The notes under the pieces are model-generated. The model did not search any database. It had not been told where the DNA came from and saw nothing but the letters and a program-made list of their open reading frames with translations. Of a stretch of 64,000 nucleotides of DNA, positions 18,383-52,669 are shown piece by piece (position 1 is the first letter of the stretch; each line of letters opens with the position of its first letter). Source of the stretch: Patescibacteria group bacterium (GTDB taxonomy: Bacteria > Patescibacteriota > Minisyncoccia > Phycocordibacterales > SIBU01); the NCBI GenBank assembly GCA_040390045.1, contig JAZJZC010000003.1:115-64114 (forward strand), given 5' to 3'. The position numbers and the translations under genes are program-made.

Positions 18383-19354
18383 ATGAAAAGTGTACACAAA
18401 AAAACTATCGTAATCATCGTTGTACTAGCTTCTATTGTCGCTCTTTTAGTTGTGGTTTTTATTAAATTCTCAAAATCCACCACCTATACCAGCTCACTCG
18501 ATGAAAGTACCATTCAATCAAAAATGCTGGCAGTTGATACCGACTCAGATGGTTTAAAAGATTGGGAAGAACAGCTATGGAAAACTGATCCGAAAAATCC
18601 TGACTCGGATGGTGATGGCGCGCTTGATGGAGAAGAAATTAAAACTGGGCGTGACCCGTTGAAGGCAGGGCCAAATGATAAGCTCGACACCGACACGATA
18701 ACCGCCAAAATAAATCCTGAAACAGAATCTGACCTCTCCGAAACCGACAAATTCTCTCGAGAACTTTTTGTAAAAATAATTGCAGCTGGGGAATCTGACA
18801 CTCCTCCGACAGAAGCCGATTACGAAAATTTTCTGAATCAAACTATTCAGCAACAAATTGACGCTCAAAAAATTAAGAATTACACTTCTGAAGATGTAAA
18901 AGTTGATGCAGAAGAAACTCCTGAAAAAATTAGAGCTTACGGCAATACTATTGCCAGCATTCTGACCAAAAAGCCCCCTCAAAAACTTGAGTTTGAAATT
19001 GCCATTGTGGATAGAGCCCAAACAAAGAACGACCCCGAGGAATTAAAAAAGCTTGAACCTTTGATTGCTGAATATAAACGCATTGAACATGATTTGATCA
19101 AGGTAACTGTACCGAAAAGCGCGTTGAAAAATCATTTGTTACTCATAAATGCCACAACAGCCATGGCGTGGAGCATCACTGGCTTGGAATATGTTTTATC
19201 TGATCCACTCAAAGCCTTGCCGGGAGTTACCGCCTATTCAGACAACGCGGACGGTTTTCAAAATGCAATCAGATCGTTTAAAAGTTATTTTGATTCGGCG
19301 GGAATTATTTTTCAATCAACAGACAGTGGTTATCAATTCTTCGATACGATATAA
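18383..19354 (+). CDS. Membrane-anchored protein with calcium-binding (thrombospondin type-3-like DxDxDG) repeats; first gene of the T4SS-like cluster
   Basis: N-terminal TM; DTDSDGLKDWEE / DPKNPDSDGDGALDGEE repeats. Confidence 0.5.
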   Translation: MKSVHKKTIVIIVVLASIVALLVVVFIKFSKSTTYTSSLDESTIQSKMLAVDTDSDGLKDWEEQLWKTDPKNPDSDGDGALDGEEIKTGRDPLKAGPNDKLDTDTITAKINPETESDLSETDKFSRELFVKIIAAGESDTPPTEADYENFLNQTIQQQIDAQKIKNYTSEDVKVDAEETPEKIRAYGNTIASILTKKPPQKLEFEIAIVDRAQTKNDPEELKKLEPLIAEYKRIEHDLIKVTVPKSALKNHLLLINATTAMAWSITGLEYVLSDPLKALPGVTAYSDNADGFQNAIRSFKSYFDSAGIIFQSTDSGYQFFDTI

Positions 19355-19390
19355 TTAGTAGGACTTATTCAGTCGGCATCCACAGGACTG

Positions 19391-19424
19391 CGTTTTGTTC
19401 TCACATAAGAATGTGAACAAAACG
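19391..19424. promoter_or_regulatory. Near-perfect 16-bp-arm palindrome upstream of the 827-aa secreted protein gene (operator or attenuator/terminator hairpin)
   Basis: CGTTTTGTTCTCACAT aaga ATGTGAACAAAACG. Confidence 0.4.
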
Positions 19425-19437
19425 GGAGCATTTCAAT

Positions 19438-21921
19438 ATGAAAAGTTTTAAAAACACCACGCTCTCAATCCTCATCGTTTCGCTCATCGCGGGACCGACG
19501 CTCTTTTCGTTTCCGACTCAGGCAAAAGCAGGGGTGACAGACTGTATCGCTGGAATGTTGCTCAGCAAAACTAAAAGTACAGGAACCACAGTGGCGGCAA
19601 CCGCGGTAGGTACCGGCGCCATGACCAGCGCAAGCGGCGTAGCAACCGCCAACAAAATTACCTCAGTTCCAACGAGTGACGCTGGGGTAGCGGCCATGAT
19701 TCAAGGCCAAACCACCGCCATCACGTCACTCGTCAAGGCTGATGCAACGATAAATTCTGGAACTAACAGCCAAACCACAGGCTTGAGCATCAAGCGCTGT
19801 ATTATTGAACCGATCGTCACTATCATGGCGAGAACCCTTCTCACCAAATTTACCGCTCAAACAGTTAATTGGATCAATGGTGGTTTCCAAGGCAGTCCAC
19901 AATACGTCACCAACATTCAGGGTTTTATGTCTGATGTTGCCGATCAAGCAATCGGTAGCTACATACGAGGACTTGGCCCCATCGGGGCAATTCTCTGCGG
20001 ACCGTTTGACTTACAAGTGCGACTTTCACTCAATTTACAATATTCTAAAGGACCGAATCTTCGAGAGATCGGTTGTCGACTCTCAGATATCCAAAAAAAT
20101 GTTCAGAACGCTTTCACCAAGGGAGTTTTCGGAAAAAATGGTTGGGATAACTGGCTTCAAATTACTCAGACCCCGCAAAATAATCCTTACGGCGCATATC
20201 TCAAGGGTGTGGAGTCAATCGACGCTAAGATTGCCGGTCAGCAATTTGCCCTGAAAACCCAACTTGATTTTGGCAGAGGTTTTCTTTCTTCGGTTGATCC
20301 AGCAACTGGAAAAATCACAACGCCCGGTTCGATCATCGAGGGTCAGCTAAACGCAACACTCATCCAACCGCTCCAAAATATTGGGTTGGCTAAAGATATC
20401 GACGCTATTTTAAATGCACTAGTTGGACAAATGATCAGTCAGGTTATGGGTGGCATTGGGGGACTGGCCGGCGCAAGCGACTCTCGCTCCGCTTCTGGTG
20501 GATATTCGTCAGCAGTTGATCTTGGTCTAAAACAGACTCCGGCCACTGTTTCTAATGCAAATAATCAGGCTCAAAGTCTTCAAGTTGGTTTGTACATGAA
20601 TACAATTGGTGGAGGAAGAACTGCCGCCACAACAGCCTGTCCAACAAAAACAAGTGATTGTCCTACCGTTACGGGCGGTCCGACACCAACAGAGTTTTGT
20701 ACGCAATTTAAGGCAAACGTCTACGGCACAAAACCAAACGACGCAAGAGTGTGGGTAAAAGTGAACGGTACAGGTGGCGACCAATTGACTTCAAAAACTT
20801 CTGCTACTGGTGACGTACCATGGACTCTTGCTGATTACCGAGCGACGGCCAACTTCTGCCAATTCGTCGATATTACTACGCCGATCGGCGGAGAGGTTGA
20901 TAAATTTGTTGATCAAATAACTCCAAAAGGTGAGGTTACCGCTCCTGTTATCACTCCAGCAAAACCACCGGCAAATAATAATGCCAACCGAGAAATTTCT
21001 CTCTACACCGCGAAACTTAATCAGTCCTTCGTCTATCGTTCCGACGAAGGAATATTGTATGGGCCACAAAACGTCTTCGGCCAAATTGGCGCACTCACAT
21101 ACGGTGGCCCCGCGCCGCATTGGTGGACCGCTTCCTTAAATCAAACTGAGAAGATAGAAACCATTACCGTTAAGTCGATAGTAGACGGACGAACTACTGG
21201 TGCCCACACAATTAGATTCTCCTTACTCCCAGACAGTCAGTCGGGCGTAGCTGTTTCACTAAATCAAGTAAACGCTGGTCAAAACGTCTTCGAGTTTACA
21301 ATTCCATCAAACCCTTCTTTTGGTTCGTACTCTATTAGGATCGGCGGGGTCGAAGTAGCAACTCTTTCTGGAACCAACAATGATTTCACCATCACTTTCA
21401 AAAATCCGATTTCCGCAAATGCCTTGGCAATATCAAGACCAACCTTCCTCTGGCTGTCCCAAGTTACGCTATCGCGCCCACAATCGGCTACTGTTTCTTT
21501 CGATAATGCAATTTCAGATATGGTCCTGCTAAGCAAATCTCAGCCGACAAATATCAGTGTTGGTTTCTCTTCTCGTCTCGACAAAACGATTACTATCAAA
21601 ACCTCGCTTCAAAAATATTTCAACGGGTCATATGTGGGCGAAGCCTTCGCCGGCGGATCAGTCTTTGAAAGTTTCTCTGCTGACATTCAACAGCCGGCGA
21701 GTGGATTGGCAAAGGGTCCTTTTAACGCTTCCGCCATGGAAAGTGGTCAATCTGTAAATATTACTGCGGACAATGGGGCCTTTATAAATTACAGCATAAA
21801 ACCGCCGACGCTCAGTGCTTGTGACGACTCGAGCTTACCGCAATACCGATTGATTACGACTATAAGTGCCGATGAAACCTGGACACAAGTAACGCCGCTT
21901 AATATAAAGTGTAGCGAGTAG
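19438..21921 (+). CDS. Large secreted protein of unknown function (T4SS-like cluster)
   Basis: Signal peptide MKSFKNTTLSILIVSLIAGPTLFSFPTQAKA; 827 aa, Thr/Ser/Gly-rich surface-protein-like. Confidence 0.55.
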   Translation: MKSFKNTTLSILIVSLIAGPTLFSFPTQAKAGVTDCIAGMLLSKTKSTGTTVAATAVGTGAMTSASGVATANKITSVPTSDAGVAAMIQGQTTAITSLVKADATINSGTNSQTTGLSIKRCIIEPIVTIMARTLLTKFTAQTVNWINGGFQGSPQYVTNIQGFMSDVADQAIGSYIRGLGPIGAILCGPFDLQVRLSLNLQYSKGPNLREIGCRLSDIQKNVQNAFTKGVFGKNGWDNWLQITQTPQNNPYGAYLKGVESIDAKIAGQQFALKTQLDFGRGFLSSVDPATGKITTPGSIIEGQLNATLIQPLQNIGLAKDIDAILNALVGQMISQVMGGIGGLAGASDSRSASGGYSSAVDLGLKQTPATVSNANNQAQSLQVGLYMNTIGGGRTAATTACPTKTSDCPTVTGGPTPTEFCTQFKANVYGTKPNDARVWVKVNGTGGDQLTSKTSATGDVPWTLADYRATANFCQFVDITTPIGGEVDKFVDQITPKGEVTAPVITPAKPPANNNANREISLYTAKLNQSFVYRSDEGILYGPQNVFGQIGALTYGGPAPHWWTASLNQTEKIETITVKSIVDGRTTGAHTIRFSLLPDSQSGVAVSLNQVNAGQNVFEFTIPSNPSFGSYSIRIGGVEVATLSGTNNDFTITFKNPISANALAISRPTFLWLSQVTLSRPQSATVSFDNAISDMVLLSKSQPTNISVGFSSRLDKTITIKTSLQKYFNGSYVGEAFAGGSVFESFSADIQQPASGLAKGPFNASAMESGQSVNITADNGAFINYSIKPPTLSACDDSSLPQYRLITTISADETWTQVTPLNIKCSE

Positions 21922-21936
21922 TTTGGTCACAAAAGC

Positions 21937-24900
21937 ATGCGGAAATTTTTACTTTCATTTTTCATAGTCACCCTCACACTCTACGCGTCGTTTTCACCGA
22001 TGGGGAGTTCAAGGGTGTTTGGCCAACTCATCGATATTCCTCTTGATACTGGGGGAGATACAGGTGGCCTAACTTCACCAAATCTTCCAACTCTTCCAGA
22101 TTTTCAACCAGGAGATGGCGTGCGCGCCGACAGCGGAACCAGTCAGGGGGCTGTTGCCGCGGGATCAAACACCGTGGGAGGTGCAAATAATTCTCAATCT
22201 ACACCAGCGGTTATGCAGTTCGCGAGCTGTTTTGTTTTTGCCGCAACAGCTGGATTAGCTGGAGGTTTACACCTAGAAAATTGCGCCGCCAGTGTTATGT
22301 ATATCATCATGTGGATTTTCTCCTGGATACTCTGGTTGTCTGGAAAAATTTTGGACATGTCGGTCTATTACACCATCAACCTTGCTGATCTGTTAAACCA
22401 TGTTCCTGTGGTTGATATTGGGTGGAGAATTTTCCGCGATCTCGCCAACATTTTCTTCATATTTATTCTCTTGTGGGTAGCAATCGGTACGATTCTTGGA
22501 CTGATCTCGGGAAAAACCAAGGAAATTATTGTGCACCTCGTCATCGTGGCGCTTTTAATGAACTTCAGTCTTTTTATAACAAAAACTGTCATTGATGCTT
22601 CAAACATCGTCGCGATTCATTTCTACAACCTCATCGTTACTGGCACTTCCACGGGTACACCTCCAACCACAAGTCTTTCTGGAGCTTTTATGGAAGGCTT
22701 GAAAATTCAAACTCTCTTCCAACCTCAAACTCCTGGAGGGCAGGCGGGAGGAATTGCTGGTTTAGCGGCAGACTATAGTGGTGGAATAATAGACGCCTTT
22801 AAAGTCATCCTCATTGGCGGTTTTGGAATTGCGGTCATGATGATTGCCTCGTACATCTTTTTTGTGGCAGCAATCTTATTTATCGTCCGTCTGATCAATT
22901 TAATGATGGTTATGATTCTCTCACCGTTGGCTTTCCTGGCTTTCGTCCTACCTTCAACGGAAAAATATGCTGACCAGTGGAAAGAGAAATTGATTGGCCA
23001 GTCAATTTTCGCGCCGATTTACCTCGCGATAACCTATGTAGTAATAAAAACTATTCAATCTCCGGCATTTACAAGTGTGGTCTCGGTCAACAATAGAGAC
23101 ACTGGAGCGTCAGTTATGTCAGCTTCTGCTCTTATATTTTATGGCGCATCTGATACCGGTTCCGCTGCCGGCTTCGCCTTTGTCTTTAACTTCATTCTAC
23201 TCATTGGACTCATGCTTGGTTCGATTCTCGTCGCCAAAAAAATGGAAGCGGGTGGAATCGAATTTGCTGTTGAGGCTGGAAAAACAGCGGGAGGGTTTAT
23301 CGGAAGAAGTGTGGCGAGAGGGAAGTATATTACCGCAGTTTCGTCAACCTATTCTGGGGCCGTGGGCGGTATTGGGGGTAGAGTAGCGAATGTTTTAGGT
23401 TTCAAGGACACAGCAAAATCTTTACGAGAACATGCGGCAAAAGTATCCGCTAAGGGCGATTTTGCTCAAAAGAAAATGGATATGAACGAGTGGGATAGAA
23501 AATTTGGAAGGAGCGCTTTTGGTACAACCGAACTGGGAAGTTTTATTAGGGAGAAAACAACTGGCGGCGCCTTATTCGGAACTAAAGCCAAATTTGGTGG
23601 CGAAAAATCAGTAGGCGAGTCCTATGAGGAGAGCGAACATTTGCGTGATGAAGCACAAGATGTGGAACGTGCAAACGACGTCAAGAGAGCCGCTCTTGTG
23701 CTACAAAGTGAAATAAAAAACCCGAAGGCAACAAAAACAAAGGGTGAGCTGTTAGCAAAAGATGCGTCTGGTAAATTTCTTTTCAGGCCAGCCGTTCTTC
23801 CAGACAAACCTGACGGAAAGGGGGGCCTGAGAGAAATGACAGAAGATGAGTGGGTAGCAGATCTGCAAAAAAAGGAAAGGGATGAGAATAAAAAAATACT
23901 GCTCGATGCGGTTCAATCAGCCGTAACACGGCTTCCCTCCACAGGTCTTGTCCATCTCCAAGAAGAAGTCATAAAAACTGTTCTACCTTATTCGACAGAA
24001 AGACAGGTTGACGAACTAATAAAATCTACTGATGGCGGTTGGACAAAAGAAGACAAGGATGAATTTCTTGAAATCTATTTTAATCAACTGAAAGAAGATG
24101 GTGAAAAAGCTTCTGATGAACTCGAAGCGTTTGATCAAAAATTAGCTGCCTACGAGCAAGAAGTTCGAGAAGGTAAATTTGCAATTGATTCTGCCACAGG
24201 AAAAGTAATTACAGACAACAAGGGAAGGGTTATCGCCAAAGGAACCACTCTAGATGCAGACGGAAATGCTTCTGGGGATACTTTTGAAATTCCGGAATAT
24301 AAACAAACCGATGCGTTCCGCGCTGTGTATGCAAAAACTCGTCGATACATGTCAGATAAGGGATTTGAACTCCTAAATATCGTCAACTTTAGCTCTCATC
24401 TTTCGCAAAGTACCAAGGACCGACTCAAAAGAGAGGGAAAAAACGAAAAGGAGGGAAATCTTCTCCGTGCTGTACCTGCTATTGGTAAAATTATGAAATG
24501 GGGCACCGTCCAGAATATACGCGACCCCAACAAAACTTCGGGATTTACAGACCAATTCCGTGTTGATATTCGGTCTATAAAAGATGCTGATTGGGTTAAA
24601 TTACTCACTGTATTACGTGAACAAAAAGATCCTATCACCGGAGAATTTATGTACCGCAATACGGATGACGAGCGCGCCGAAGCGTTGCGAACAGGCAATT
24701 TTGAACTTACCGTTAAAGATAATTTGTGGGAAGCTCGAGCCCGAGACTTTTTGGCCGGGAGAGCGGCTGTTGAATCGGCAAACACCCCTGGAGGATTGCG
24801 TAAATTGTACGAAAATATTCGTCTTATGGGAGCCGAGGTTCTTAGAGAAACAGCTAAAAAGGATCCTGTGGATGTAAAAATCCTTTTGGAGGGAGCCTTT

Positions 24901-25185: not shown

Positions 25186-25237
25186 CCTAGTGAGTAGTTA
25201 AATTTCTAAGAGCAGAGACAAAGAAAATTACAACACC

Positions 25238-26812
25238 ATGAGTTACATAGACCAAGAACAAAAATTAGAAAAAATCTTGAGTAAATTACCTCAAGCAACT
25301 CAAGAACTGTTTAAAGATTATTCTATACTTTTTATTATTGGTGATACCGGGGACGGTTTTAATTTAACCATGGGAGAAATTGGTGAGGTATGTGAACTGG
25401 TTCGCCAAGTGATCACAAAAGAAAGACCGGTGGAAAAATTTGAGGAAGGGTTGAAAGAAAAATTGGCGGATGATGAGGATAACCTAGCAAAAGCGGGGGA
25501 AATTGTAGCAACTATCAACGAGAAAATTTTTGTGAAGCTCTTGCCGGCGTTGGGATTGAAAGCCTTGCCGATTCTCATGACTCCTGCTGTTGCTAAAAAT
25601 TTACCTGACGTAAACGTTTCATTTGAAGAAGGAAAGAGTAAAGAAGATGAAGAGTCTGCGGTCGCACAACCTTTAGGATCTTCACAACAATCGATCGATT
25701 CTCAACTACCGACTCCGCCTCGTACGGTCATGTTAAATAAAATGCCTCAGACTCAAGCGCCAACTGCTCCAAAACCAAACCGCTTCCCAAACCTAAAATC
25801 AGTAGCACCCGTACTTAACCTCAAACCTTTCTCAGGAGCTCCTTCTCCCGGACTTTCGAAATTTTCGAGTGCTCCAAGTGGATCAGTCGGGGCTTCTGCG
25901 AACACTTCGGCCGCACCGATAAAACCTCGCACGCCACTTATGGAAACACCGACCGAAATGATGTCGGAAAATCAAACCGAATCATTCTTGAAAATGCTCG
26001 CCGGTAAATTGGATGAAAAAGATTTGCAATCAAGATTTGATAAACTGCCATTCGCACTTAAAACCGCGCTCCGCTCGATGGACTCGGCTAAAAAAGTGCT
26101 CGACATTGGCATAAAATACGGCCTTCATGTCGACAAACTCGGAGTGGTAGCCGAAGAAACCGGCTTGGTAATTCTTGGTATGACGCACCCCAATCAATTT
26201 CTTCCTCGACTCAACCGCCGTCTCGGCATTGGCGAAGAAAAAACTCGACCTATCGCTCAAGAAATCAACACTGAAATTTTCCTGAAAATTCGCGAGGCGT
26301 TAAAGCAAGTGAACGGGGAAGAGCCTTCGTATGCAAACCTCGCACAATCTGCCGTAGCGACAAAATCAATTGCACCAGCGACCGAACCAGAACCTCATCC
26401 GTACAACCCGATTGACTTAGCCCAAACAAGTGAAGCTCAGACTGAAAATATCGCTGTTCAACAAGAGGGCGGCGAAATCCTTGATCGTGAAAAAATCCTT
26501 AGAGAAATCGAAAATCCTTCGACAGTAAAAATGACGCCTGTCTCAGTGCCAGTACCAAAAGTTGAGAGCAGACCAGTAGAAATTAAACCTCAAATACCCG
26601 CGCCAATTGTTCCACCTCCAGCACCGCCCGCGCAACCACCGCGCCAGGAATTTCAATTTGAACCTCCAGCACCAAAACCTCAAGAAACCCCTAAGCCTAT
26701 CGTGACCTCTCCAACATCAAACATCGTTGACCAGAAACTTTCTGATGTCACCGCGGCAAAGAAAACAGGAAGTTCTTATTCTGCAGATCCGTACAGAGAA
26801 CCCTTGCAGTAG
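25238..26812 (+). CDS. Hypothetical cytoplasmic protein with internally duplicated ~90-aa domain and Pro-rich linkers
   Basis: Two similar segments (…IGDTGDGFNLTMGEIGEV… / …DIGIKYGLHVDKLGVVAEE…) and a PxxP-rich tail. Confidence 0.5.
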   Translation: MSYIDQEQKLEKILSKLPQATQELFKDYSILFIIGDTGDGFNLTMGEIGEVCELVRQVITKERPVEKFEEGLKEKLADDEDNLAKAGEIVATINEKIFVKLLPALGLKALPILMTPAVAKNLPDVNVSFEEGKSKEDEESAVAQPLGSSQQSIDSQLPTPPRTVMLNKMPQTQAPTAPKPNRFPNLKSVAPVLNLKPFSGAPSPGLSKFSSAPSGSVGASANTSAAPIKPRTPLMETPTEMMSENQTESFLKMLAGKLDEKDLQSRFDKLPFALKTALRSMDSAKKVLDIGIKYGLHVDKLGVVAEETGLVILGMTHPNQFLPRLNRRLGIGEEKTRPIAQEINTEIFLKIREALKQVNGEEPSYANLAQSAVATKSIAPATEPEPHPYNPIDLAQTSEAQTENIAVQQEGGEILDREKILREIENPSTVKMTPVSVPVPKVESRPVEIKPQIPAPIVPPPAPPAQPPRQEFQFEPPAPKPQETPKPIVTSPTSNIVDQKLSDVTAAKKTGSSYSADPYREPLQ

Positions 26813-27213
26813 GGGATAGGGGGTAGGGTTTAGGGTATAATTAAACCAATGACATTAAGTTCATTCAAAGAATTAATTGTTTGGCAAAAAGGTATTGAGC
26901 TTGTTAAAGAGATCTACAAGTTAACGGAAAGCTTTCCGAAAACTGAAACATACGGGCTGACTAGTCAGATGAGAAGGTCCGCGGTTTCAATCCCTTCCAA
27001 CATTGCTGAAGGTTATAAACGAAAAAACGTGAAGGAGTACATACAATTTTTGAGCATAGCTGATGGTTCAGCGGCCGAGCTTGAAACACAGCTAATAATT
27101 TCAAAGTCAATTTACAAAACTAATTTTTCAATAGCTGAAAATTTGTTAGAAGAAATACAGAAAATGCTCATAACGATGATTCGCAAACTAAACCCTAAAC
27201 CCTAAACCCTTCT
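26813..27213. mobile_element. ~400-bp TIR-bounded mini-element carrying a four-helix-bundle (rRNA-IVS-type) protein gene
   Basis: 5' TIR GGGATAGGGGGTAGGGTTTAGGGTATAATTAAACC; 3' TIR ACTAAACCCTAAACCCTAAACCCT (reverse-complementary GGGTTTAGGG repeats); the 3' TIR encodes the protein C-terminus LNPKP*. Confidence 0.6.
26849..27205 (+). CDS. Four-helix-bundle protein (23S rRNA intervening-sequence protein family)
   Basis: LTSQMRRSAVSIPSNIAEGYKRKNVKEYIQFLSIADGSAAELETQL matches the family signature. Confidence 0.8.
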   Translation: MTLSSFKELIVWQKGIELVKEIYKLTESFPKTETYGLTSQMRRSAVSIPSNIAEGYKRKNVKEYIQFLSIADGSAAELETQLIISKSIYKTNFSIAENLLEEIQKMLITMIRKLNPKP

Positions 27214-27215
27214 TT

Positions 27216-27641
27216 ATGAGATTCCAAGTTCCACAATTCATTGAAGTTGAAGATAAAATTTTTGGTCCCTTGACCATCAAACAATTTATCTACCTGGCTG
27301 GAGGTGGGGGATTGTGTTTTATTTTCTATTCATACTTCAAACTCTATATCGCCATACCACTCATGATACCGGTGATAGCCTTTTCTGTAGCCTTAGCGAT
27401 GTACAAAGTCAACAATCGCTCTTTTATACTCATCCTTGAGTCAGCTTTCAAATATATGGTCACCAACAAACTATACATCTGGAAAAAAACCGACAGAAAA
27501 CCGACACACAAAACTGAAACTGCACCCGACACACTTTTGTATGTACCCAAACTTTCCGACAGTAAACTGAAAGACTTAACGTGGAGTCTTGATATTAACG
27601 AAAATACCTCGCTCGGTGCCAAAGAGAGTATGGAGCGTTAG
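27216..27641 (+). CDS. Small 2-TM membrane protein, PrgI/VirB3-like candidate
   Basis: 141 aa, two adjacent hydrophobic helices (LCFIFYSYFKLYIAIPLMIPVIAFSVALAMY) directly upstream of the virB4 genes, as in Gram-positive T4SS. Confidence 0.4.
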   Translation: MRFQVPQFIEVEDKIFGPLTIKQFIYLAGGGGLCFIFYSYFKLYIAIPLMIPVIAFSVALAMYKVNNRSFILILESAFKYMVTNKLYIWKKTDRKPTHKTETAPDTLLYVPKLSDSKLKDLTWSLDINENTSLGAKESMER

Positions 27642-27643
27642 TC

Positions 27644-28157
27644 GATACGAAAATACGAAATGGAAACGAATATACGAAAAAATACGAAAACAACCTCACC
27701 AAGTGTATTGTATCCGGAATTATCGTATGATTTGGTTGGTATTTTTTTTGATGTACACAAAGAACTCGGTTTGTACGGGAGAGAAAAACAATATGCTGAT
27801 GCAATCGAGCTAAAACTCAAGCTTCGAAACATTCCTTATGAAAGGGAACTGGCGATTTCTGATAGTGGCAACATACTTGATTTTCTAGTTGATAGAAAAA
27901 TAATATTGGAATTAAAATCTAAGCGGATGTTAACTCCAGATGATTTTCGCCAAACCCAACACTACTTGCAAGAAACACAAATGCGCTTGGGTTTATTAGT
28001 CAACTTCAGAGAAAAAAATATTAAGCCTGTCCGTATTGTTCGCATAGATACCGTAAAAAAGTTACAATATAAGAACGAGAAGGAAAGTCAGTAAGATTGC
28101 GCAAAAAGTTTTTGTATAATTTCGTATATTGGCATTAATAATTCGTATTTTCGTATG
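27644..28157. mobile_element. ~515-bp TIR-bounded mini-element carrying a GxxExxY (PD-(D/E)xK-like) gene, inserted between the prgI-like and virB4 genes
   Basis: 5' TIR GATACGAAAATACGAAA (27644-27660) / 3' TIR AATTCGTATTTTCGTAT (28141-28156); internal TACGAAA direct repeats; the 3' TIR overlaps the ATG of the downstream gene. Confidence 0.6.
27660..28094 (+). CDS. GxxExxY family protein (PD-(D/E)xK nuclease-like)
   Basis: VGIFFDVHKELGLYGREKQYADAIELKLKLRNIPYERE…DFLVDRKIILELKS…LGLLVNF matches the family pattern; the N-terminus is encoded by the repeat. Confidence 0.65.
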   Translation: METNIRKNTKTTSPSVLYPELSYDLVGIFFDVHKELGLYGREKQYADAIELKLKLRNIPYERELAISDSGNILDFLVDRKIILELKSKRMLTPDDFRQTQHYLQETQMRLGLLVNFREKNIKPVRIVRIDTVKKLQYKNEKESQ

Positions 28158-28805
28158 GCATCTTCCTCAACCAAAGCAACCCAAGATTTTGTTCCTATAA
28201 AAGAAGTGCGTGATGGCATCGTCGTTCTAAAAGACGGCTCTTTCAGAGCAATTCTTATGACGTCCTCCTTAAACTTTGCCTTGAAGTCAGAAGACAATCA
28301 AAATGCCATTATTTTGCAGTTCCAAAACTTTTTAAACTCGCTTGATTTTTCAATTCAACTTTTTATTGAATCGAGGAAACTCGACATCAGACCATACATC
28401 GCCCTTTTGGAAGATCGCTATAAAAATCAAACTGCTGACTTGATGAAAATTCAAACCCGCGAATATATTGAGTTCATTAAAACCTTTACAGAAAACACGA
28501 GCATCATGACCAAAACCTTTTTTGTGGTTGTCCCATTTGCCGCCGCACCCTTGCAAATGAAAAAAGGAGTAATGGATTTTGCCGGAAAACTGCTCACTCG
28601 CAAGCAAGCTGAAGAAAAAATTCAACAAAAACAGGACAACTTTGAAGAAAGCCGAAGCCAGCTGCTTCAAAGAATTTCAGTGGTGGAGCAGGGACTGATG
28701 CGTTGCGGTATCAGAGCAGTAGAACTGGGAACTGAGGAGGTGGTTGAGTTGTATTACAAAATTTTTAATCCGGGAGATACCGACAAACCAATCCAAATCA
28801 ATTAA
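28155..28805 (+). CDS. VirB4/TrbE N-terminal (CagE_TrbE_VirB-like) domain protein, a separate ORF from the ATPase
   Basis: PIKEVRDGIVVLKDGSFRAILMTSSLNFALKSEDNQNAIILQFQNFLNSLDFSIQLFIESRK resembles N-termini of Gram-positive VirB4 (PrgJ/TcpF-type); recalled similarity, no search run. Confidence 0.55.
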   Translation: MASSSTKATQDFVPIKEVRDGIVVLKDGSFRAILMTSSLNFALKSEDNQNAIILQFQNFLNSLDFSIQLFIESRKLDIRPYIALLEDRYKNQTADLMKIQTREYIEFIKTFTENTSIMTKTFFVVVPFAAAPLQMKKGVMDFAGKLLTRKQAEEKIQQKQDNFEESRSQLLQRISVVEQGLMRCGIRAVELGTEEVVELYYKIFNPGDTDKPIQIN

Positions 28806-28813
28806 TAAATACC

Positions 28814-30631
28814 ATGGGACTATTTGATATTTTTAAGAAAAAAGAAAAACTTCCCGACATTGCGTCAATTTTGCCACAAGAAATTTATGCTGCCGGTGTG
28901 TTGGAATTGAAAGATATCATCGCACCGTCGGCGCTCAAGGTCAGCCCACGGACGCTGAACCTGGGAGAAAAAATTGTCAGAACTTTTTTTGTGATTTCCT
29001 ACCCACGATTTCTATCAGCTGGTTGGTTTTCACCGATTATCAACCTCGACAAAGTGTTTGATATTTCAATCTTCATTCATCCGATTGACACAGCGGTAGT
29101 CTTGCGACAATTCCAGAAAAAGGTAGCCGAGGTGCAAAGCCAAATTGCTACGAGAGAGAAAAAAGGGCTTGTCCGCGACCCAATGCTTGATACGGCATAT
29201 CACGATCTCGAAAGTCTCCGTGATAACTTGATGCAAGCTCAAGAAAAATTGTTTGATGTCGGTCTCTATATTTCCATTTACGCCGACAGCGATGCTGAAC
29301 TCGACAAAATCGAATCGGAAATAAAATCCCTACTCGAATCAAAATTAATTTATTTAAAACCGGCGCTCTTCCAACAGGAACAGGCATTTCGAAGTGTTAT
29401 TCCTATGGCTCAAGATGAACTCATGATCCATTCAAAGCTAAATTCGTCTCCGCTTTCTTCGTTGTTTCCGTTTACGTCTTTCGATCTTACGTCAGACAAA
29501 GGAATTCTCTATGGCATTAACCGCCACAACTCATCACTGGTCCTTTTTGATCGTTTCAGTTTGGAAAACTATAACTCAATTACGTTCGCCAAATCTGGTT
29601 CCGGAAAAAGTTACAACACTAAATTGGAAATTTTGAGAACCTTGATGTTTGATACTGAGGTCATTGTCATCGACCCTGAACGCGAATATGAATACATGGC
29701 GGAAGCCACGGGAGGGAAGTACTTTACGATTTCGCTCAACTCAAATCATCACATCAACCCGTTTGATCTACCGATCCCGCGAGAAGATGAATCGGCCACG
29801 GATGTCCTTCGCTCAAACATCATCAACCTAGTTGGTCTTTTCAGAATTATGCTCGGCGGTCTTTCTGCCGAAGAAGACGCTTTGATTGACCGCGCCATTA
29901 GCGAAACCTATGCTCTTAAAGACATCACGCCTGACTCGGATTTTAAAAATATCGAGCCGCCTCTGCTTTCAGATTTTGAACTGGTGCTTGCCGGTATGGA
30001 AGGCGCGGAGTCTTTGGTGCAACGTTTGAGTAAATATACTCGTGGCACTTGGGCTGGTTTTATCAATAGACCTTCAAACATCGACATCGATAGTAAATTT
30101 ATTGTCTTCTCTCTTCGCGATATGGAAGACGAATTGAAACCAGTCGCCATGTATATCGTCATGCACTATATCTGGAATGCAATCCGCAAAAATTTACGCA
30201 AACGTTTGCTTGTCATCGACGAGGCGTGGTGGATGATGAAATCAGAAGACACGGCATCATTTCTCCTTGGGCTCGCCAAGCGAGGACGAAAATATTTCCT
30301 CGGCCTTTCCACCATCACACAAGACGTGGACGACTTTTTGAAATCCCCTTACGGCTTGCCGATTATTACCAACTCGTCGATCCAAATGCTTCTCAAGCAG
30401 TCGCCGTCCTCAATCGATAAAATTCAAAAAGTGTTCAGCTTAACTGATGAAGAAAAATATTTATTACTCGAATCCGATGTTGGAGAGGGAATTTTCTTTG
30501 TTGGACTAAAACACGTGGCTATAAAAGTGATTGCTTCATACACCGAAGATCAGATTATCACTTCGGATCCATCACAATTACTCGCCATCAAAAAGGCGAA
30601 GAAGGAGCTTGAGGCAGGACAGACCACGTAA
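28814..30631 (+). CDS. VirB4-like type IV secretion ATPase (C-terminal ATPase part)
   Basis: Walker A AKSGSGKS, Walker B LLVIDEAWWMM, 605 aa. Confidence 0.85.
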   Translation: MGLFDIFKKKEKLPDIASILPQEIYAAGVLELKDIIAPSALKVSPRTLNLGEKIVRTFFVISYPRFLSAGWFSPIINLDKVFDISIFIHPIDTAVVLRQFQKKVAEVQSQIATREKKGLVRDPMLDTAYHDLESLRDNLMQAQEKLFDVGLYISIYADSDAELDKIESEIKSLLESKLIYLKPALFQQEQAFRSVIPMAQDELMIHSKLNSSPLSSLFPFTSFDLTSDKGILYGINRHNSSLVLFDRFSLENYNSITFAKSGSGKSYNTKLEILRTLMFDTEVIVIDPEREYEYMAEATGGKYFTISLNSNHHINPFDLPIPREDESATDVLRSNIINLVGLFRIMLGGLSAEEDALIDRAISETYALKDITPDSDFKNIEPPLLSDFELVLAGMEGAESLVQRLSKYTRGTWAGFINRPSNIDIDSKFIVFSLRDMEDELKPVAMYIVMHYIWNAIRKNLRKRLLVIDEAWWMMKSEDTASFLLGLAKRGRKYFLGLSTITQDVDDFLKSPYGLPIITNSSIQMLLKQSPSSIDKIQKVFSLTDEEKYLLLESDVGEGIFFVGLKHVAIKVIASYTEDQIITSDPSQLLAIKKAKKELEAGQTT

Positions 30632-30710
30632 CACATAGCATGGAACATGTAACAGAATAGCTTTGTATCCATGATTCATGTTGCGTGCTCCATGTTTCAT
30701 TTTTTAATCT
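30632..30710. repeat. Intergenic repeat sharing GAACATG / GCTCCATG / TGTTGCGTG submotifs with the rpmH-dnaA spacer
   Basis: catagcatggaacatgtaacagaa…catgttgcgtgctccatgtttc versus 37101-37200 catagaacatgtatcacagaacatggaaca…atgctccatg…tgttgcgtg. Confidence 0.5.
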
Positions 30711-31727
30711 ATGGCTGAAAAAGAACCAGAAAAAATTTCTCAAAAAGACAAAATTTCCGGCACTGAGTGGGGGATGGTGCTTGGGGTTCTTTTGATTGTT
30801 GATCTGGTCCAATTTGCACTCGACTGGATAGGAATTCCTTTTATTGGGAACCTAGGAACAGTTCTAAATCGATTCATTGATATCGGGGTTGCCCTTGGTT
30901 GGTCTACATACCTATATTTACGCGGGATTACGATGGAAACCAAAAAAATTGGTAGTATTATATTGACCTTTTTCTTTGAGGAGATACCGAGCATTGACGC
31001 TTTCCCGTTTTGGACTGCTGACGGGGCCTTTATTTACTTTTCAGTAAAAGCTGAGAAGCAAGTGCAGGCGGTGGCGGCAGTGGGAGTAGCGGTGGCGGCA
31101 GTAGCCCTTGCTCCGGAAACTGGCGGCGCGTCTCTTGCAGCAGAGGGAGTAGTAGCTGCTGATGTCGCAGCTGAAGGTGGAGCTGTAGCCGAGGAGGCAG
31201 CAGAGGGAGTAACTGGAGTGGCAGAAACCGTTCATGGTGCCGAGGAGGGTTTGGAAATGTCAGATGCCTATGCGGACGAAATGGGACAAGAAAGTGACGC
31301 TCGTGACAATCAAACCGAGCCCGAAACTGAACACTTAGAGGAAGATAGTGGAACGGGTGACGAAAACCATGACCTTTCGGATGAAGAGAATGACGAGATG
31401 GGAAGACAGTCTGACGAACAATCGAAAGAAAACAAAACACCAGAAGAAGAGGAAGAAACCAGTAAAAAAAAGAAGAGGGAATCTGAGAAAGGGTCTCGGG
31501 AATCGCTTTTGGGTGGTGGACAAACAGGAAAACCTGGTGAAATTGGTGGCAATCGAAACAATCTCGACCTCCGCGGCAGTGCCGCTTATGGGGAAAGAAG
31601 GAAAAAAGAAAGAGAGCTTGGTGCACTTCAAAATGTCACTGATTTAACCATGTCGTACAAACAAAGAAAAGAGGGAAGGAAAGATAATAGTAAAATTAAA
31701 GACGATGAAACTTCACTTGCTGAATAA
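30711..31727 (+). CDS. Membrane protein with 3-4 TM helices and a long acidic, low-complexity C-terminal tail
   Basis: Hydrophobic N-terminal third; tail rich in E/D/K (EEDSGTGDENHDLSDEENDEMGRQSDEQSKENK). Confidence 0.5.
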   Translation: MAEKEPEKISQKDKISGTEWGMVLGVLLIVDLVQFALDWIGIPFIGNLGTVLNRFIDIGVALGWSTYLYLRGITMETKKIGSIILTFFFEEIPSIDAFPFWTADGAFIYFSVKAEKQVQAVAAVGVAVAAVALAPETGGASLAAEGVVAADVAAEGGAVAEEAAEGVTGVAETVHGAEEGLEMSDAYADEMGQESDARDNQTEPETEHLEEDSGTGDENHDLSDEENDEMGRQSDEQSKENKTPEEEEETSKKKKRESEKGSRESLLGGGQTGKPGEIGGNRNNLDLRGSAAYGERRKKERELGALQNVTDLTMSYKQRKEGRKDNSKIKDDETSLAE

Positions 31728-31771
31728 GCGGTACTAGTATCAGTAAAACTTGTGGTAAAATGTAATCACTT

Positions 31772-32788
31772 ATGAAATATCTCAACTTCATATTTTTATT
31801 GGCAATGATGTTTGTCTCAGTGAGCACAGCGCATGCCCAACTTCAAAGCCTCGACAATCAGTCTGGAGGTATCATTATAAATAGCGACCCGGCGAATCCG
31901 AAGCCTCGACAGTTTGTCACCGTTACCATCCAAAGTTACACCACAGACCTCGACCGTTCCGAGGTGTCTTGGTTTGTAAATGGTGTTTTGCAAAAAAAAG
32001 CCATCGGTGAAAAAAGTTTTCTTTTTAAAACCGGCGGGCTTGGAAGTTTCTCAAATATTTTAGTCACCATCAAAACTCCAGAGGGTGAATTTCTACAATC
32101 GGTTTTAAATATCAACCCCGCGAGCCTCGACCTTATGTGGGAAGCTCAGTCCTACACACCACCTTTTTTTGAAGGTAAGGCAAGCTATCCTTTTGAAGGG
32201 TCTGTTAAAATTGTGGCGATGCCAAGTATTTCAAACGAGAATGGTGTGGCTATAAATCCAAAAACCCTCGTTTACACATGGTCAATTAACGGCGATGCTG
32301 TTTCTAAAGTTTCAGGCTATGGCAGAAATTTCATGTTTTTAGATGGCACCATACCAATAAACGCCACAACAGTTAGTGTAGAGGCCGCGACACTTGATAA
32401 AAAATACGTCGCAAAAAATTCAATTACCATAACTCCGTCTAGCTCCCAGATAATTTTGTATGAGGATAGCCCAACATTGGGAGTGTTATATAATAAAGCG
32501 CTCACAGGAAGTTTGGATCTTCAAAATCAAGAAATTCGTATCGCAAGCATTCCTTTCTTTTTAAGTGCTAAAAACCGCGAAGACGGAACCTTGAAATACG
32601 AATGGACCCAAAACGACCAGCAGGTAAACAGCAGTGACACCAGCAGTCTTTCTTTCAAACAATCCGGAGGTGCCGCAGGTAATGCGCTTATTGGTGTCCA
32701 AGTTAGCCACTTGACCAAAATTCTTCAGTTTGTACATAGTGGGCTTTCTATTAATTTTGGTCAATCAGTCTCTGGAGGCGTTTTTTAA
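31772..32788 (+). CDS. Secreted protein of unknown function
   Basis: Signal peptide MKYLNFIFLLAMMFVSVSTAHA; beta-rich composition. Confidence 0.5.
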   Translation: MKYLNFIFLLAMMFVSVSTAHAQLQSLDNQSGGIIINSDPANPKPRQFVTVTIQSYTTDLDRSEVSWFVNGVLQKKAIGEKSFLFKTGGLGSFSNILVTIKTPEGEFLQSVLNINPASLDLMWEAQSYTPPFFEGKASYPFEGSVKIVAMPSISNENGVAINPKTLVYTWSINGDAVSKVSGYGRNFMFLDGTIPINATTVSVEAATLDKKYVAKNSITITPSSSQIILYEDSPTLGVLYNKALTGSLDLQNQEIRIASIPFFLSAKNREDGTLKYEWTQNDQQVNSSDTSSLSFKQSGGAAGNALIGVQVSHLTKILQFVHSGLSINFGQSVSGGVF

Positions 32789-32794
32789 AGCACA

Positions 32795-33781
32795 ATGTTT
32801 ACTACACTCAAAAAAATCTTTTCGGTTCAAAGCGCTCTGTCAATTTTAATACTATTTTTTTTCTTGGCTCCCCTTATCTCGTACTCTCTTGATTACGTAC
32901 CCCTTGCGGAGATTCCCGGAACCGTAAGCAACGCTACTGGTGGCACAACACTTTCAACGTACCTTACGGGAATATTCAGAGCTGGTATTGTTATGGCGGG
33001 AGTTTTAGCCTTCCTAATGATTGTGATTGGAGGATTCCAGTATCTATCAACTGACGCCATGACAGGAAAAGAGGAGGGAAAGGTACGAATAGAGCGCGCA
33101 GTTGGGGGGCTTCTCTTGGCCCTTGCCTCGTATATTATTCTCTACACGATCAACCCAGACTTGGTAAGTCTTAATTTAACCTTAAGCGGCACAAGGCCCG
33201 CCTCAGATGTGGGTAGGCCACCAGATCTCATCTCAGCTGAAAGTGCGGCCCTAGACAGGGCCGCTTCAGAGATCAACAAAAACCGACAAGCGACACGTGA
33301 CGAGGCAACGAAACTTGACGAAGCGGTTGGTGTGTACCGAGCCCAAAGAGAAGCTATTTTGAAAGAGATCGCTGCAGGGGACAACTCCCACATCGCTCAA
33401 TTTAATGAGTTGCAACAAAAAATTGTCATCAACCAAACTGACGCTCAGGCAATCCGTGACTATGGTAGCGCAAAAAATGGAATTTTACTGAAAACAACAT
33501 CGGCTATCAGCGAGGGCGCCCAAGCACAAAATTCTGTGGGAGGAATTTATGCCCGATGGATAGGTGGTGCAGCGCCAGCCGAACTTGAAGATCACCTAGA
33601 TGCCATCGACCTAAGTGTCAATACTGCAACGGCGAAATTAAACCGGGAAATAGAGACGGCAAGAACAATCAATAACCCTGAACTCGCCGCAAAGTACACT
33701 GCATGGCTTGATGAAATTAAGGCCTACGCTGCCACATCAAAGACCCAGATTACTAGTGCATATAATCCACCGCGACCATAA
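32795..33781 (+). CDS. VirB2/TrbC-like pilin candidate with ~200-aa C-terminal extension
   Basis: Signal peptide, then two hydrophobic helices separated by a short charged loop (GIVMAGVLAFLMIVIGGFQYL…GKEEGK…AVGGLLLALASYIILYTI), the VirB2 topology. Confidence 0.4.
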   Translation: MFTTLKKIFSVQSALSILILFFFLAPLISYSLDYVPLAEIPGTVSNATGGTTLSTYLTGIFRAGIVMAGVLAFLMIVIGGFQYLSTDAMTGKEEGKVRIERAVGGLLLALASYIILYTINPDLVSLNLTLSGTRPASDVGRPPDLISAESAALDRAASEINKNRQATRDEATKLDEAVGVYRAQREAILKEIAAGDNSHIAQFNELQQKIVINQTDAQAIRDYGSAKNGILLKTTSAISEGAQAQNSVGGIYARWIGGAAPAELEDHLDAIDLSVNTATAKLNREIETARTINNPELAAKYTAWLDEIKAYAATSKTQITSAYNPPRP

Positions 33782-33783
33782 CT

Positions 33784-35049
33784 ATGTCCAAAAAAACCGC
33801 CATTGCCATAATCGTTTTTCTTGTCCTGCTCATCGCTGGTGGCTTTTTGGCTTTTTATTTTTACTTTAATCGTGGTACGGGCAACGACATCATCCCCGCA
33901 ACAAACACACCGGTTACAAGTATTTTTCCTTCGAGTAACGTCGGGGGCTCAAACAGTGGAAACAACGGGGGTAACAATACTTCAGCAAGTACTACAATTA
34001 GCGGAAACCAGAATCAATCTAACTCTCTGCCGATGCCGGTTCTTAAACAACTATCTATTCGTCCAAGTGCTGGGGCTGTTGTTATCGCCACCACCTCTCC
34101 GGTTGTACTAGTAAATTTTATTGAAAAGGGGACGGGAAATGTCTACCAGGTCAGCCCAGAAAACAATCTTGAAATTCGACTTTCCAATACCACCATACCA
34201 AAAATCCAAGAGGCGCTCTGGAACAAAACAGGTTCACAGGTGATCACTCGGTACACTACTTCAGATGAAGTTGATTCGATCAAATCCTACAGCGGCTTTC
34301 TGTTGCCGAAATCGGCCGACAATCCCGATGGCGCGCTTACAGGATATTTTCTTTCAGAAAATATTAGAGCCATGGTTAAAAATCCAGACCAAAACAAAAT
34401 CTTCTATTTACTACCGACGTCATCTGGTAGCACCGGCATCATCGCCGATTTCGATGGCAGCAAAAAAACCCAAATTTTTGACTCCCTTCTAAAGGAATGG
34501 CTCGTTGACTGGACATCACCAAATATCATTTCCCTCAACACCAAGCCATCTGCTGGAGTTCCAGGCTACTTATTTCTTCTGAATACCAAAACCGGCGGCC
34601 TCTCACGGGCGATCACTGGTATTAAAGGACTGACCTCCAAAGTCAGCCCGACTGGGAACATCATCTTGTACTCAGAAAGCGCTGATGGAGCGCTCTCATT
34701 AAAAATCTACAATCTTAAAACGGGTACAACATTAGAAACTCCCGTTGCGACCTTGGCAGAAAAGTGTGTTTGGTCAAGCAATAATTCCGACATCTTCTAC
34801 TGTGCAGTACCAACGTATGTTCCACCCGGCAACTTTCCGGATGACTGGTACAAAGGCCTGGTACTCTTTTCAGATGAGATCTGGAGAATAGACAGCACCA
34901 CAGGAACTGGAGAACTGATAGCTGATCCCACAAACCTTACTAAAGAACAAATTGACGGCGTAAACCTATCTCTAAGTCCAAAAGAGGATTACCTGCTATT
35001 TACTAATAAAAAAGATTTTCATTTGTGGAGTTTGCGGTTACAACAATAA
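33784..35049 (+). CDS. Membrane-anchored extracytoplasmic protein (possible beta-propeller)
   Basis: Signal anchor IAIIVFLVLLIAGGFLAFYFYF; 421 aa. Confidence 0.5.
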   Translation: MSKKTAIAIIVFLVLLIAGGFLAFYFYFNRGTGNDIIPATNTPVTSIFPSSNVGGSNSGNNGGNNTSASTTISGNQNQSNSLPMPVLKQLSIRPSAGAVVIATTSPVVLVNFIEKGTGNVYQVSPENNLEIRLSNTTIPKIQEALWNKTGSQVITRYTTSDEVDSIKSYSGFLLPKSADNPDGALTGYFLSENIRAMVKNPDQNKIFYLLPTSSGSTGIIADFDGSKKTQIFDSLLKEWLVDWTSPNIISLNTKPSAGVPGYLFLLNTKTGGLSRAITGIKGLTSKVSPTGNIILYSESADGALSLKIYNLKTGTTLETPVATLAEKCVWSSNNSDIFYCAVPTYVPPGNFPDDWYKGLVLFSDEIWRIDSTTGTGELIADPTNLTKEQIDGVNLSLSPKEDYLLFTNKKDFHLWSLRLQQ

Positions 35050-36544: not shown

Positions 36545-36883
36545 TTAACCTGTGATTGCTGCTTTTTTAAAAACAGCCTCAATCTCGGTTTTTAATTTTT
36601 CTATAGGATCCTTCGCAATCTTCTTCTTTAAAAAGAAAACTGCTTGCAATCCTGACTTTGCTTTGGAAAGGTACGGGCGTATCAGAGCATACATTCTCCT
36701 TTTCATAAAATTTCTTTGAACTGCACGTTTCTCGATTTTTTTAGAAACAACCACTGAAAACCGAGCTGGCTGGCTACCTAAGGACACCGTTCGCAATGAA
36801 AAGCTCTCCGAGTGAAAGCTTTTGCCTTTTTCTAAAATATCCTTGAAGAGGCGAGTGCCCACTTTTCTATTAGAAGGAATCAT
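36545..36883 (-). CDS. rnpA: Ribonuclease P protein component
   Basis: MIPSNRKVGTRLFKDILEKGK… basic ~112 aa, downstream of rpmH; the ORF-track start at 36895 likely over-extends. Confidence 0.8.
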   Translation of the reverse strand: MIPSNRKVGTRLFKDILEKGKSFHSESFSLRTVSLGSQPARFSVVVSKKIEKRAVQRNFMKRRMYALIRPYLSKAKSGLQAVFFLKKKIAKDPIEKLKTEIEAVFKKAAITG

Positions 36884-36889
36884 AGTTAA

Positions 36890-36966
36890 ATACAAAATAC
36901 TAATGGATACGAATATACAAATTCTCTCATTTGTACCTTTGTACTGATTTGTATTTCGTATTTCCT
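36890..36966. repeat. Degenerate copy of the GATACGAA-TIR element between rpmH and rnpA
   Basis: GGATACGAATATACAAA … TTTGTATTTCGTATTTCC (imperfect inverted repeat). Confidence 0.4.
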
Positions 36967-52567: not shown

Positions 52568-52637
52568 AATAAGTTGAAGGTTACAAGGGAAGAGTGACTT
52601 CCTAATCCTCCGGGATAAATTGTCGCAAGGGTTTATC

Positions 52638-52668: not shown

Positions 52669-52669
52669 T

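Follow-up and report, generated by a model that had tools for sequence, protein, structure and literature searches.

Much of bacterial diversity belongs to the Patescibacteria, which seem to live by attachment to other cells. Their chromosomes are known to encode type IV secretion systems (T4SSs) in which an MPF-FATA-related VirB4 occurs with an adjacent TrsD, a PrgI, a VirB6 and VirB2-like pilins (Quinonero-Coronel et al. 2025, Microb Genom, PMC12102498). These systems have nearly no relaxases, and in Paceibacteria and Microgenomatia they are found in the neighbourhood of dnaA, dnaN, ksgA and rnpA; a VirB2-like pilin near virB4 is an unusual feature for monoderm systems (PMC12102498). In one member of the Saccharibacteria, Southlakia epibionticum, the T4SS cluster SEML1_0006-0019 is essential for epibiotic growth, based on transposon sequencing (Tn-seq; Wang et al. 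2023, Cell, PMC10633639), and the saccharibacterial T4SS, with its Tn-seq evidence, is the only one known to be essential for its own bacterium (PMC12857230, the 2025 T4SS nomenclature review). In Paceibacterales that parasitise methanogens, T4SS pilins and proteins with galactose-binding folds, immunoglobulin (Ig)-like domains or peptidoglycan (PG)-binding domains rank near the top in expression among the genes of unknown function (PMC10936435). Here, we examine a gene cluster of this kind in a stretch of 64,000 nucleotides from a Patescibacteria group bacterium (GenBank assembly GCA_040390045.1, contig JAZJZC010000003.1), which we refer to as the window; the cluster occupies positions 18383-35049 on the + strand.

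The cluster consists of 13 co-directional open reading frames (ORFs), numbered g1 to g13 in their order (Table 1) and tightly packed with gaps of 2-83 nt between them. Eleven of the 13 are T4SS genes, and the other two, g5 and g7, are small inserted cassette genes that are unrelated to the T4SS. The initial annotation of this DNA had described a co-directional run of 15 genes; the shared direction is as it was described, but we count 13 ORFs, and two of these, with matches to 23S_rRNA_IVP and PDDEXK_3, belong to the cassettes. The cluster is flanked by uvrD-ksgA on one side and by jag-yidC-rnpA-dnaA-dnaN-pbp1 on the other, and thus adjoins the replication origin. Like the published Patescibacteria systems, it has a split TrsD-like/VirB4 pair, PrgI, VirB6, a pilin, an origin-proximal site and no relaxase nearby, and we find no essential difference between those systems and the window locus. 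Thus, the system is already known, in that its composition, its split VirB4, its lack of relaxases and its position near dnaA have all been published (PMC12102498, PMC10633639, PMC12857230); the locus adds a further example and leaves that picture unchanged. The locus is very probably the Paceibacteria (Parcubacteria) version of the chromosomal T4SS of the Patescibacteria clade, derived from MPF-FATA (Firmicutes-type) conjugation machinery, fixed beside oriC and vertically inherited, and its role would be that of a contact-dependent host-interaction machine rather than a conjugative one. Relative to the part of PMC12102498 that was available to us, our analysis adds folds for g2, g11, g13, g4 and g10 and the recognition that two of the ORFs are inserted cassettes. 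These additions are modest, amounting to a map of the folds, gene by gene, in the Paceibacteria version and to the observation of a motor that is more conserved than DnaA as compared to surface parts that diverge quickly. The fold map and the conservation gradient provide concrete candidates for experiments on host recognition and substrate recruitment.

The position, gene order and conservation of the cluster in related genomes carry much of this argument. We scanned one genome per species and obtained 80 related loci, which come from Taylorbacteria, Zambryskibacteria, Kaiserbacteria, Wolfebacteria and other Paceibacteria. Of these, 42 loci are covered in full with 10 kb on each side, and all counts out of 42 refer to this set. 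The synteny comparison proposed in the initial annotation shows that the gene order between ksgA and yidC-dnaA, and with it the position beside oriC, is the same in each of the 42. We also compared the proteins of the related loci to those of the window. The median identity of VirB4 is 82%, which is greater than that of g8 (TraC-like, 64%), DnaA (63%), PrgI (56%), DnaN (51%), KsgA (49%) or YidC (46%), while the exposed and membrane partners g1, g2, g3, g4, g11, g12 and g13 have median identities of only 28-39%. The preservation of gene order in all 42 loci, together with a VirB4 that is more conserved than DnaA, points to a vertically inherited chromosomal machine and not to a conjugative element. 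Judging from these sequence comparisons, the motor is under very strong purifying selection and the surface parts diverge quickly. The window VirB4 is 83-93% identical to thousands of VirB4 proteins from Parcubacteria, and the organism belongs to the Paceibacteria/Parcubacteria, not to the Saccharibacteria. Constraint of this kind on VirB4 is unusual for an ATPase derived from conjugation.

We noted in passing that many of the species-representative genomes with the locus (L005-L083) carry the title ‘uncultured Candidatus Saccharibacteria bacterium’. In VirB4 and in synteny these genomes match Parcubacteria/Paceibacteria, and the titles look generic or wrong.

The VirB4 of the window is made as two polypeptides, g8 and g9. 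The 605-aa g9 protein matches positions 185-733 of the CD1110 model (NF045971) with 364.5 bits against a cutoff of 325, and also matches P-loop_TraG in Pfam (E=1.5e-28) and, among PDB entries, the Thermoanaerobacter VirB4 4ag5 (E=2e-40) and TrwK (E=5e-5). Its Walker A (AKSGSGKS) and Walker B (LLVIDEA) motifs are intact, and by analogy with known VirB4 proteins it would be the motor of the system. The g8 protein matches VirB4_plasma at positions 99-233 (E=2.7e-12), CD1110 at positions 2-118 (E=4.4e-8) and TrsD (E=2.9e-5), and its orthologues are annotated as TraC-like (PF26593). Since g8 covers only N-terminal positions of the VirB4 models and g9 covers positions 185-733 of CD1110, the two together correspond to one VirB4. 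The assignment of g8 comes from these NCBIfam models, because searches of the PDB with its sequence, either alone or as a profile, gave no match. We considered that the split might reflect a frameshift or a pseudogene, but this is ruled out, since all 42 loci have the split and it is also seen on Firmicutes plasmids, in which a g8-like gene likewise stands directly upstream of virB4. The remaining component of this module, g6, has two transmembrane (TM) segments and exceeds the Pfam cutoff for PrgI; based on its counterparts in other systems, it may serve as the membrane anchor for VirB4. VirB4 in two polypeptides, PrgI and an extended VirB6 (g3) are thus present in the cluster, in agreement with the initial annotation, which had called VirB4 as two ORFs, a PrgI-like two-TM protein and a 1082-aa VirB6/TrbL-like protein.

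The evidence for VirB6 comes from homologues and from a predicted structure. The polytopic membrane region of g3 spans residues ~110-435 and contains six or seven hydrophobic helices. The match of the window protein to Pfam TrbL (E=2.8e-4, 21.1 bits) is below the cutoff of 25.9, and a TrbL match at E<0.01 is found in only 9 of 61 syntenic g3 orthologues; the g3 homologues P0157, P0179 and P0193 exceed the cutoff, with 28.2, 27.1 and 26.6 bits. A structure prediction for this protein had been suggested in the initial annotation, and we built an AlphaFold2 model on 83 sequences (mean pLDDT 79.5) and compared it to the PDB with Foldseek. The top seven relevant matches are all R388 TrwI/VirB6 chains, with probabilities of 0.99-1.0, modest E values of 0.015-0.11, target TM-scores of 0.38-0.49 and ~310 aligned columns. 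The predicted fold of g3 thus matches that of VirB6. A search of the PDB with the g3 family profile returned only coiled-coil noise, which came from the C-terminal region. In the model, this region (residues ~560-1075, ~520 aa) is all-alpha with pLDDT >90 and has only weak, solenoid-like fold matches; the basic stretch that follows the last TM helix suggests that the domain is cytoplasmic. The residues N209, S211 and R318 are invariant. The protein had been called a giant VirB6, but its size is usual for the family: homologues of 1000-1270 aa are common in the protein database, and the saccharibacterial VirB6 has 1089 aa.

The pilin candidate of the initial annotation, g12, is likewise recognised mainly through its orthologues. 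The window protein has a signal peptide and two hydrophobic helices (residues ~30-125, with TM helices at 60-78 and 102-120), which are fused to a tail formed by a coiled-coil extension of ~200 aa. Its match to T4SS_pilin (PF18895; E=0.024, 15.2 bits) is weak and below the cutoff of 26.6; 49 of 54 syntenic orthologues match this family, with a best E value of 4.7e-10. In a few relatives of g12, the pilin is fused to an SLT, CHAP or M15 wall hydrolase instead of a coiled coil. The g12 family profile gave only coiled-coil noise against the PDB.

The cluster can be compared to three better characterised types of system. In the S. epibionticum T4SS, a small hypothetical protein and PrgI come before a VirB4 of ~610 aa; the system also has VirB6-like proteins of ~1000-1089 aa with a C-terminal ARM/alpha-repeat domain, and PF18895 pilins, and its cluster is also without a relaxase or a type IV coupling protein (T4CP). 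The two clusters also differ: S. epibionticum has an array of some six short pilins, together with a protein of NTF2-like (VirB8-fold) type and with peptidase/lysozyme genes downstream of virB4, whereas the window locus has a single long fusion of pilin and coiled coil and, downstream, Ig-repeat and beta-propeller proteins. Moreover, essentiality has been demonstrated for S. epibionticum only.

The MPF-FATA conjugative T4SSs (TrsD-TrsE of pGO1/pSK41, the CD1110 VirB4 of Clostridia and Bacilli, and Mbov_0395/0397 of a Mycoplasma integrative conjugative element) share with the window locus the CD1110 VirB4, the TrsD-like split and PrgI. Indeed, the closest VirB4 proteins that are encoded on plasmids or outside the Candidate Phyla Radiation (CPR) belong to the CD1110 family, come from Bacillota and Actinomycetota, and are 28-36% identical to that of the window. 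Unlike these systems, the window cluster has no relaxase, T4CP, PrgB-type adhesin or large VirB1 hydrolase, and it is chromosomal, origin-proximal and vertically inherited, with a VirB4 under very strong purifying selection. The third comparison, to the R388 and Agrobacterium tumefaciens systems, concerns mainly VirB6. Among PDB chains, the predicted fold of g3 residues ~110-435 is closest to TrwI, and g3, like the extended VirB6 proteins (PMC12857230), carries a large hydrophilic C-terminal domain. In sequence, however, the similarity of TrwI to g3 is marginal (phmmer E=0.73), and TrwI has no counterpart of the ~520-aa alpha-solenoid domain. The window locus also differs from these systems in belonging to a monoderm envelope without VirB7, VirB9 and VirB10.

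One plasmid locus deserves mention in its own right. On a Pontibacillus sp. megaplasmid (NZ_CP062975.1, 351801-361354; our locus L088), which is typed ‘non-mobilizable’, a pilin-like gene is followed by genes for a 780-aa hypothetical protein, a small protein, a g8-like protein, a CD1110 VirB4 and a 1050-aa PG metalloendopeptidase, next to flagellar genes. In this locus, the only one of the plasmid loci examined for it, a pilin-like gene is also present upstream. This locus is possibly a useful cultivable comparator for relaxase-less systems of the MPF-FATA type.

The other T4SS genes of the cluster encode proteins that are soluble, anchored in the membrane or secreted, for most of which the initial annotation had found no assignable function; for several of them, a fold (lectin, Ig repeats, beta-propeller) can now be given. 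It had described g1 as a Ca-binding anchor protein and g2 as an 827-aa secreted protein, and both descriptions hold, since g1 has an N-terminal TM helix and TSP3 repeats and g2 has a signal peptide. In a search of the PDB with a profile, only the Ca-binding repeats of g1 were matched and its C-terminal domain had no match; a VirB8/NTF2-like domain at this end of the protein could not be shown in this way. The g2 protein has a conserved Cys-rich helical N-terminal domain and C-terminal fucolectin/CBM32 (F5/8 type C) lectin domains, and from these domains it is a probable host-glycan adhesin. Its N-terminal domain was not classified, as the lectin domain prevailed in the two fold searches; a DUF4141 match was found once, in a single g2 orthologue. 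The g11 protein contains repeated W-x-VNG / Y-x-W motifs, and members of its family match BiPBP_C, Ig_3 and PKD_3. The g13 family profile matched a single fold family in the PDB, TolB (E=0.0034), and g13 also has weak propeller matches in Pfam.

Two of the accessory proteins are recognised by motifs. The g4 protein, with no match in Pfam or NCBIfam, consists of a small helical domain, a long Pro-rich disordered linker and a C-terminal DPYRE motif. In the alignment of 36 orthologues, D517, Y519 and E521 are invariant, the C-terminus reads ...DPYRE(P)(I/L) throughout, and a second motif, I-E-N-P, is conserved. This invariant tail is reminiscent of motifs for docking or secretion. The N-terminal helical domain of g4 is duplicated in the window genome and in two close relatives. 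In g10, residues 1-135 form a membrane domain that bears the motif E-x-IP...(L/F)P-x-W, and a disordered tail follows that is first acidic and then basic. The slot after virB4 holds a small TM protein in most loci, and 26 of these proteins are related by phmmer.

By analogy with characterised T4SSs, the VirB4 motor would attach to the single membrane by way of PrgI and VirB6, and these two would jointly form the translocon. VirB4 might then extract the VirB2-like pilin g12 from the membrane and build a fibre or a conduit that crosses the cell wall, a step that we propose because VirB4 has a known role in pilin extraction and pilus assembly. It would also power transport through a channel that traverses the membrane and the wall. 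From its fold, the secreted lectin protein g2 would bind glycans of the host cell, and g11, g13, g1 and g10 may form a lineage-specific scaffold that spans the wall or is exposed at the surface. The machine would interact with the host in a contact-dependent manner, and its cargo would most likely be proteins or something else that is not DNA; we see roughly even chances that it exports proteins. The highly expressed genes of the methanogen-parasitising Paceibacterales (PMC10936435) would correspond to orthologues of the window locus.

The absence of mobility genes bears on the first of the alternatives to this interpretation, that of a conjugative element. The initial annotation, having seen no VirD4 or relaxase in the cluster, had argued for a chromosomal apparatus and against conjugation, and had noted that a relaxase or VirD4 nearby would make the locus an ordinary integrative conjugative element. 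Pfam families for coupling proteins (VirD4), relaxases and integrases are absent from all ORFs that are 110 aa or longer within the 64-kb window, and no T4SS, T4CP or relaxase gene is found among the genes called in the ~3.5 kb past its 3' end, which excludes an ordinary integrative conjugative element. The location beside dnaA and dnaN and a GC content like that of the flanks (0.435 in the cluster versus 0.431 in the rest of the window) argue in the same direction. An element, or a decayed remnant of one, that has its relaxase and coupling protein outside the window would fit the derivation of VirB4, PrgI, VirB6 and TrsD from conjugation and the occurrence of the nearest non-CPR relatives on plasmids, and would draw on the T4CP homologues encoded elsewhere in many Patescibacteria genomes (PMC12102498). 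Nevertheless, we consider it extremely unlikely. Relaxases are present in just 103 Patescibacteria genomes and seldom near virB4 (PMC12102498), no att-like boundary was found at the locus, the same position and order recur beside oriC in all 42 species-level genomes, and conservation of VirB4 above that of DnaA is the opposite of what is expected for a mobile element. A different possibility is a competence or DNA-import machine, like ComB of H. pylori or Ced of archaea, that feeds a cell auxotrophic for nucleotides. ComB- and Ced-type systems are also without relaxases, and VirB4 matches CedB weakly (E=7.5e-9); this match, however, is confined to the P-loop core (residues 438-508), and none of the cluster genes could be recognised as encoding a DNA-binding component. 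Like Patescibacteria in general, the cell is probably an auxotroph that has to obtain its nucleotides from outside (PMC10633639). In Saccharibacteria, however, competence needs comEC and type IV pili, and loss of comEC abolishes competence and leaves the cells viable while the T4SS remains essential (PMC12857230). We therefore regard a DNA-uptake function as very unlikely.

A contact-dependent machine might also move no cargo at all, with VirB4 serving only to polymerise g12 into a surface fibre and the lectin g2 displayed as an adhesin. The pilin is present in every full-length locus, lectin and Ig-like surface proteins are encoded with it, no coupling protein turned up in the window, and Paceibacterales express T4SS pilins and adhesion-type proteins at high levels (PMC10936435), all of which would be expected of such a fibre. 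We consider this unlikely, since it is difficult to reconcile with the large, well-folded and probably cytoplasmic C-terminal domain of g3 or with a conserved soluble protein with a DPYRE tail (g4), and since the cells possess type IV pili for adhesion in any case, as judged from the PilB-like ATPase in the window (Table 1) and from PMC10633639. We also considered the parts jointly, as a dedicated host-tapping organelle made up of g2, g11, g13, g1, g10 and the extended VirB6, in which the ultra-conserved VirB4 would be an essential housekeeping motor that possibly imports host material instead of exporting effectors, and in which g4, through its DPYRE motif, would be the missing coupling adaptor or a conserved substrate that docks on the alpha-solenoid domain of VirB6 or on VirB4; this reading of the parts is speculative and, in our estimate, unlikely. 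Several points weigh against our preferred interpretation, the vertically inherited T4SS that mediates contact with a host. The absence of a coupling protein extends over 64 kb and the ~3.5 kb beyond the 3' end, and these genomes commonly encode T4CP homologues elsewhere, usually far from virB4 (PMC12102498). The VirB6 and the pilin of the window are under their Pfam thresholds, and we identify them from their orthologues and, with modest Foldseek E values, from a predicted fold. VirB8-like and VirB1-like components were not identified with confidence in the locus, and the roles of g1, g4, g10, g11 and g13 are read from fold and location alone.

The two remaining ORFs of the cluster, g5 and g7, occupy intergenic gaps of the operon, in cassettes that are not components of the T4SS, based on their families and their distribution. 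Genes of the 23S_rRNA_IVP and PDDEXK_3 families are typical of 23S rRNA intervening sequences. The g5 cassette is bracketed by inverted arms of heptamer repeats, with a predicted closing stem (z=-3.6). The arms of the g7 cassette (27645-27659 and 28142-28156) form a perfect 15-nt inverted repeat with 100% complementarity and a predicted closing stem with z=-5.2. Such arms are built of tandem units of 7-8 nt, for example four copies of TAGGGTT against three of AACCCTA, and similar repeat-built arms are found in about half of the cassettes that we examined in relatives; relatives with such cassettes include loci L028, L047, L067, L074, L076, L084 and L005. A g5-type gene is present in only a minority of loci, at three different intergenic sites, and a g7-type gene is even less frequent (Table 1). 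The sporadic occurrence of the cassettes, at differing gaps in relatives, indicates that they behave like mobile elements. It is possible that they are excised by RNase III from mRNA rather than from rRNA. We searched the literature with the protein name and the two Pfam family names; none of the titles and abstract openings returned describes this cassette arrangement, and one of the papers concerns insertion sequences in the rRNA genes of CPR bacteria.

Table 1. Features of the T4SS cluster and its surroundings, by position in the window, with the number of full-length related loci in which each is found
Feature	Coordinates	Strand	Basis or location	Loci
Secreted/anchored protein	2442-3341		No Pfam match; outside the cluster	
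Secreted/anchored protein	3408-4985		No Pfam match; outside the cluster	
ksgA	16430-17209		5' flank of the cluster, with uvrD	
Divergent PG-binding protein	17214-18308	-	PG_binding_1 E=7.2e-6	14/42
g1, N-terminally anchored Ca-binding TSP3-repeat protein	18383-19354	+	TM helix 9-27; TSP3_bac E=5.6e-8, 32.9 bits (cutoff 25)	36/42
g2, secreted protein with lectin domains, 827 aa	19438-21921	+	Signal peptide; fold searches	
g3, extended VirB6/TrbL-like polytopic protein, 1082 aa	21937-25185	+	TrbL; predicted fold	42/42
g4, soluble Pro-rich protein	25238-26812	+	Alignment of 36 orthologues	23/42
Cassette with 23S_rRNA_IVP / bAvd-like four-helix-bundle gene g5 (26849-27205)	26808-27213	+	Pfam E=5.6e-38	7/42
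g6, PrgI/VirB3-like two-TM protein	27216-27641	+	PrgI (PF12666) E=2.4e-11, 44.5 bits (cutoff 27)	42/42
Cassette with PDDEXK_3 nuclease-fold gene g7 (27660-28094)	27645-28156	+	Pfam E=5.9e-21	2/42
g8, TrsD/TraC-like protein, equivalent of the VirB4 N-terminal domain	28155-28805	+	NCBIfam matches	42/42, adjoining VirB4
g9, VirB4 ATPase, middle and C-terminal domains	28814-30631	+	CD1110 family	
g10, small polytopic membrane protein	30711-31727	+	TM segments	
g11, secreted tandem Ig-like beta-sandwich repeat protein	31772-32788	+	Signal peptide; repeated motifs	42/42
g12, VirB2-like pilin domain with coiled-coil extension	32795-33781	+	T4SS_pilin; TM helices	42/42
g13, N-terminally anchored TolB-like beta-propeller	33784-35049	+	TM helix 6-24; profile	42/42
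rnpA	36545-36895		3' flank of the cluster	
dnaA	37303-38649		3' flank of the cluster	
dnaN	38863-39963		3' flank of the cluster	
Three ORFs (155, 272 and 365 aa)	52100-54930		No Pfam match; high GC	
PilB-like T2SSE ATPase	57369-59045	-	E=5e-119	

The gene immediately upstream of the cluster is divergent and encodes a PG-binding protein, which also has a weak match to the PG-binding/hydrolysing protein 5tv7 (E=0.013). Its product may be a cell-wall remodelling accessory, analogous to VirB1, and its membership in the system is uncertain. Rfam and tRNA scans of the window gave no matches, a promoter and terminator scan performed no better than it did on shuffled sequence, and hidden Markov models of the families of the cluster proteins found zero paralogues elsewhere in the window.

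Three other features of the window lie outside the cluster. A PilB-like T2SSE ATPase is encoded ~22 kb from the T4SS, which indicates that the genome also encodes type IV pilus machinery. The only high-GC stretch in the window (0.50 versus ~0.43) contains three ORFs with several Cys pairs (CPICRK, CVECGC) and may be a small foreign island. Near the other end of the window, two neighbouring genes encode secreted or anchored proteins (Table 1), of which the 525-aa member is PG-binding-like in its N-terminal region and rich in Thr/Ser over a long C-terminal part of beta type; from these sequence features, the two products are further candidate surface proteins.

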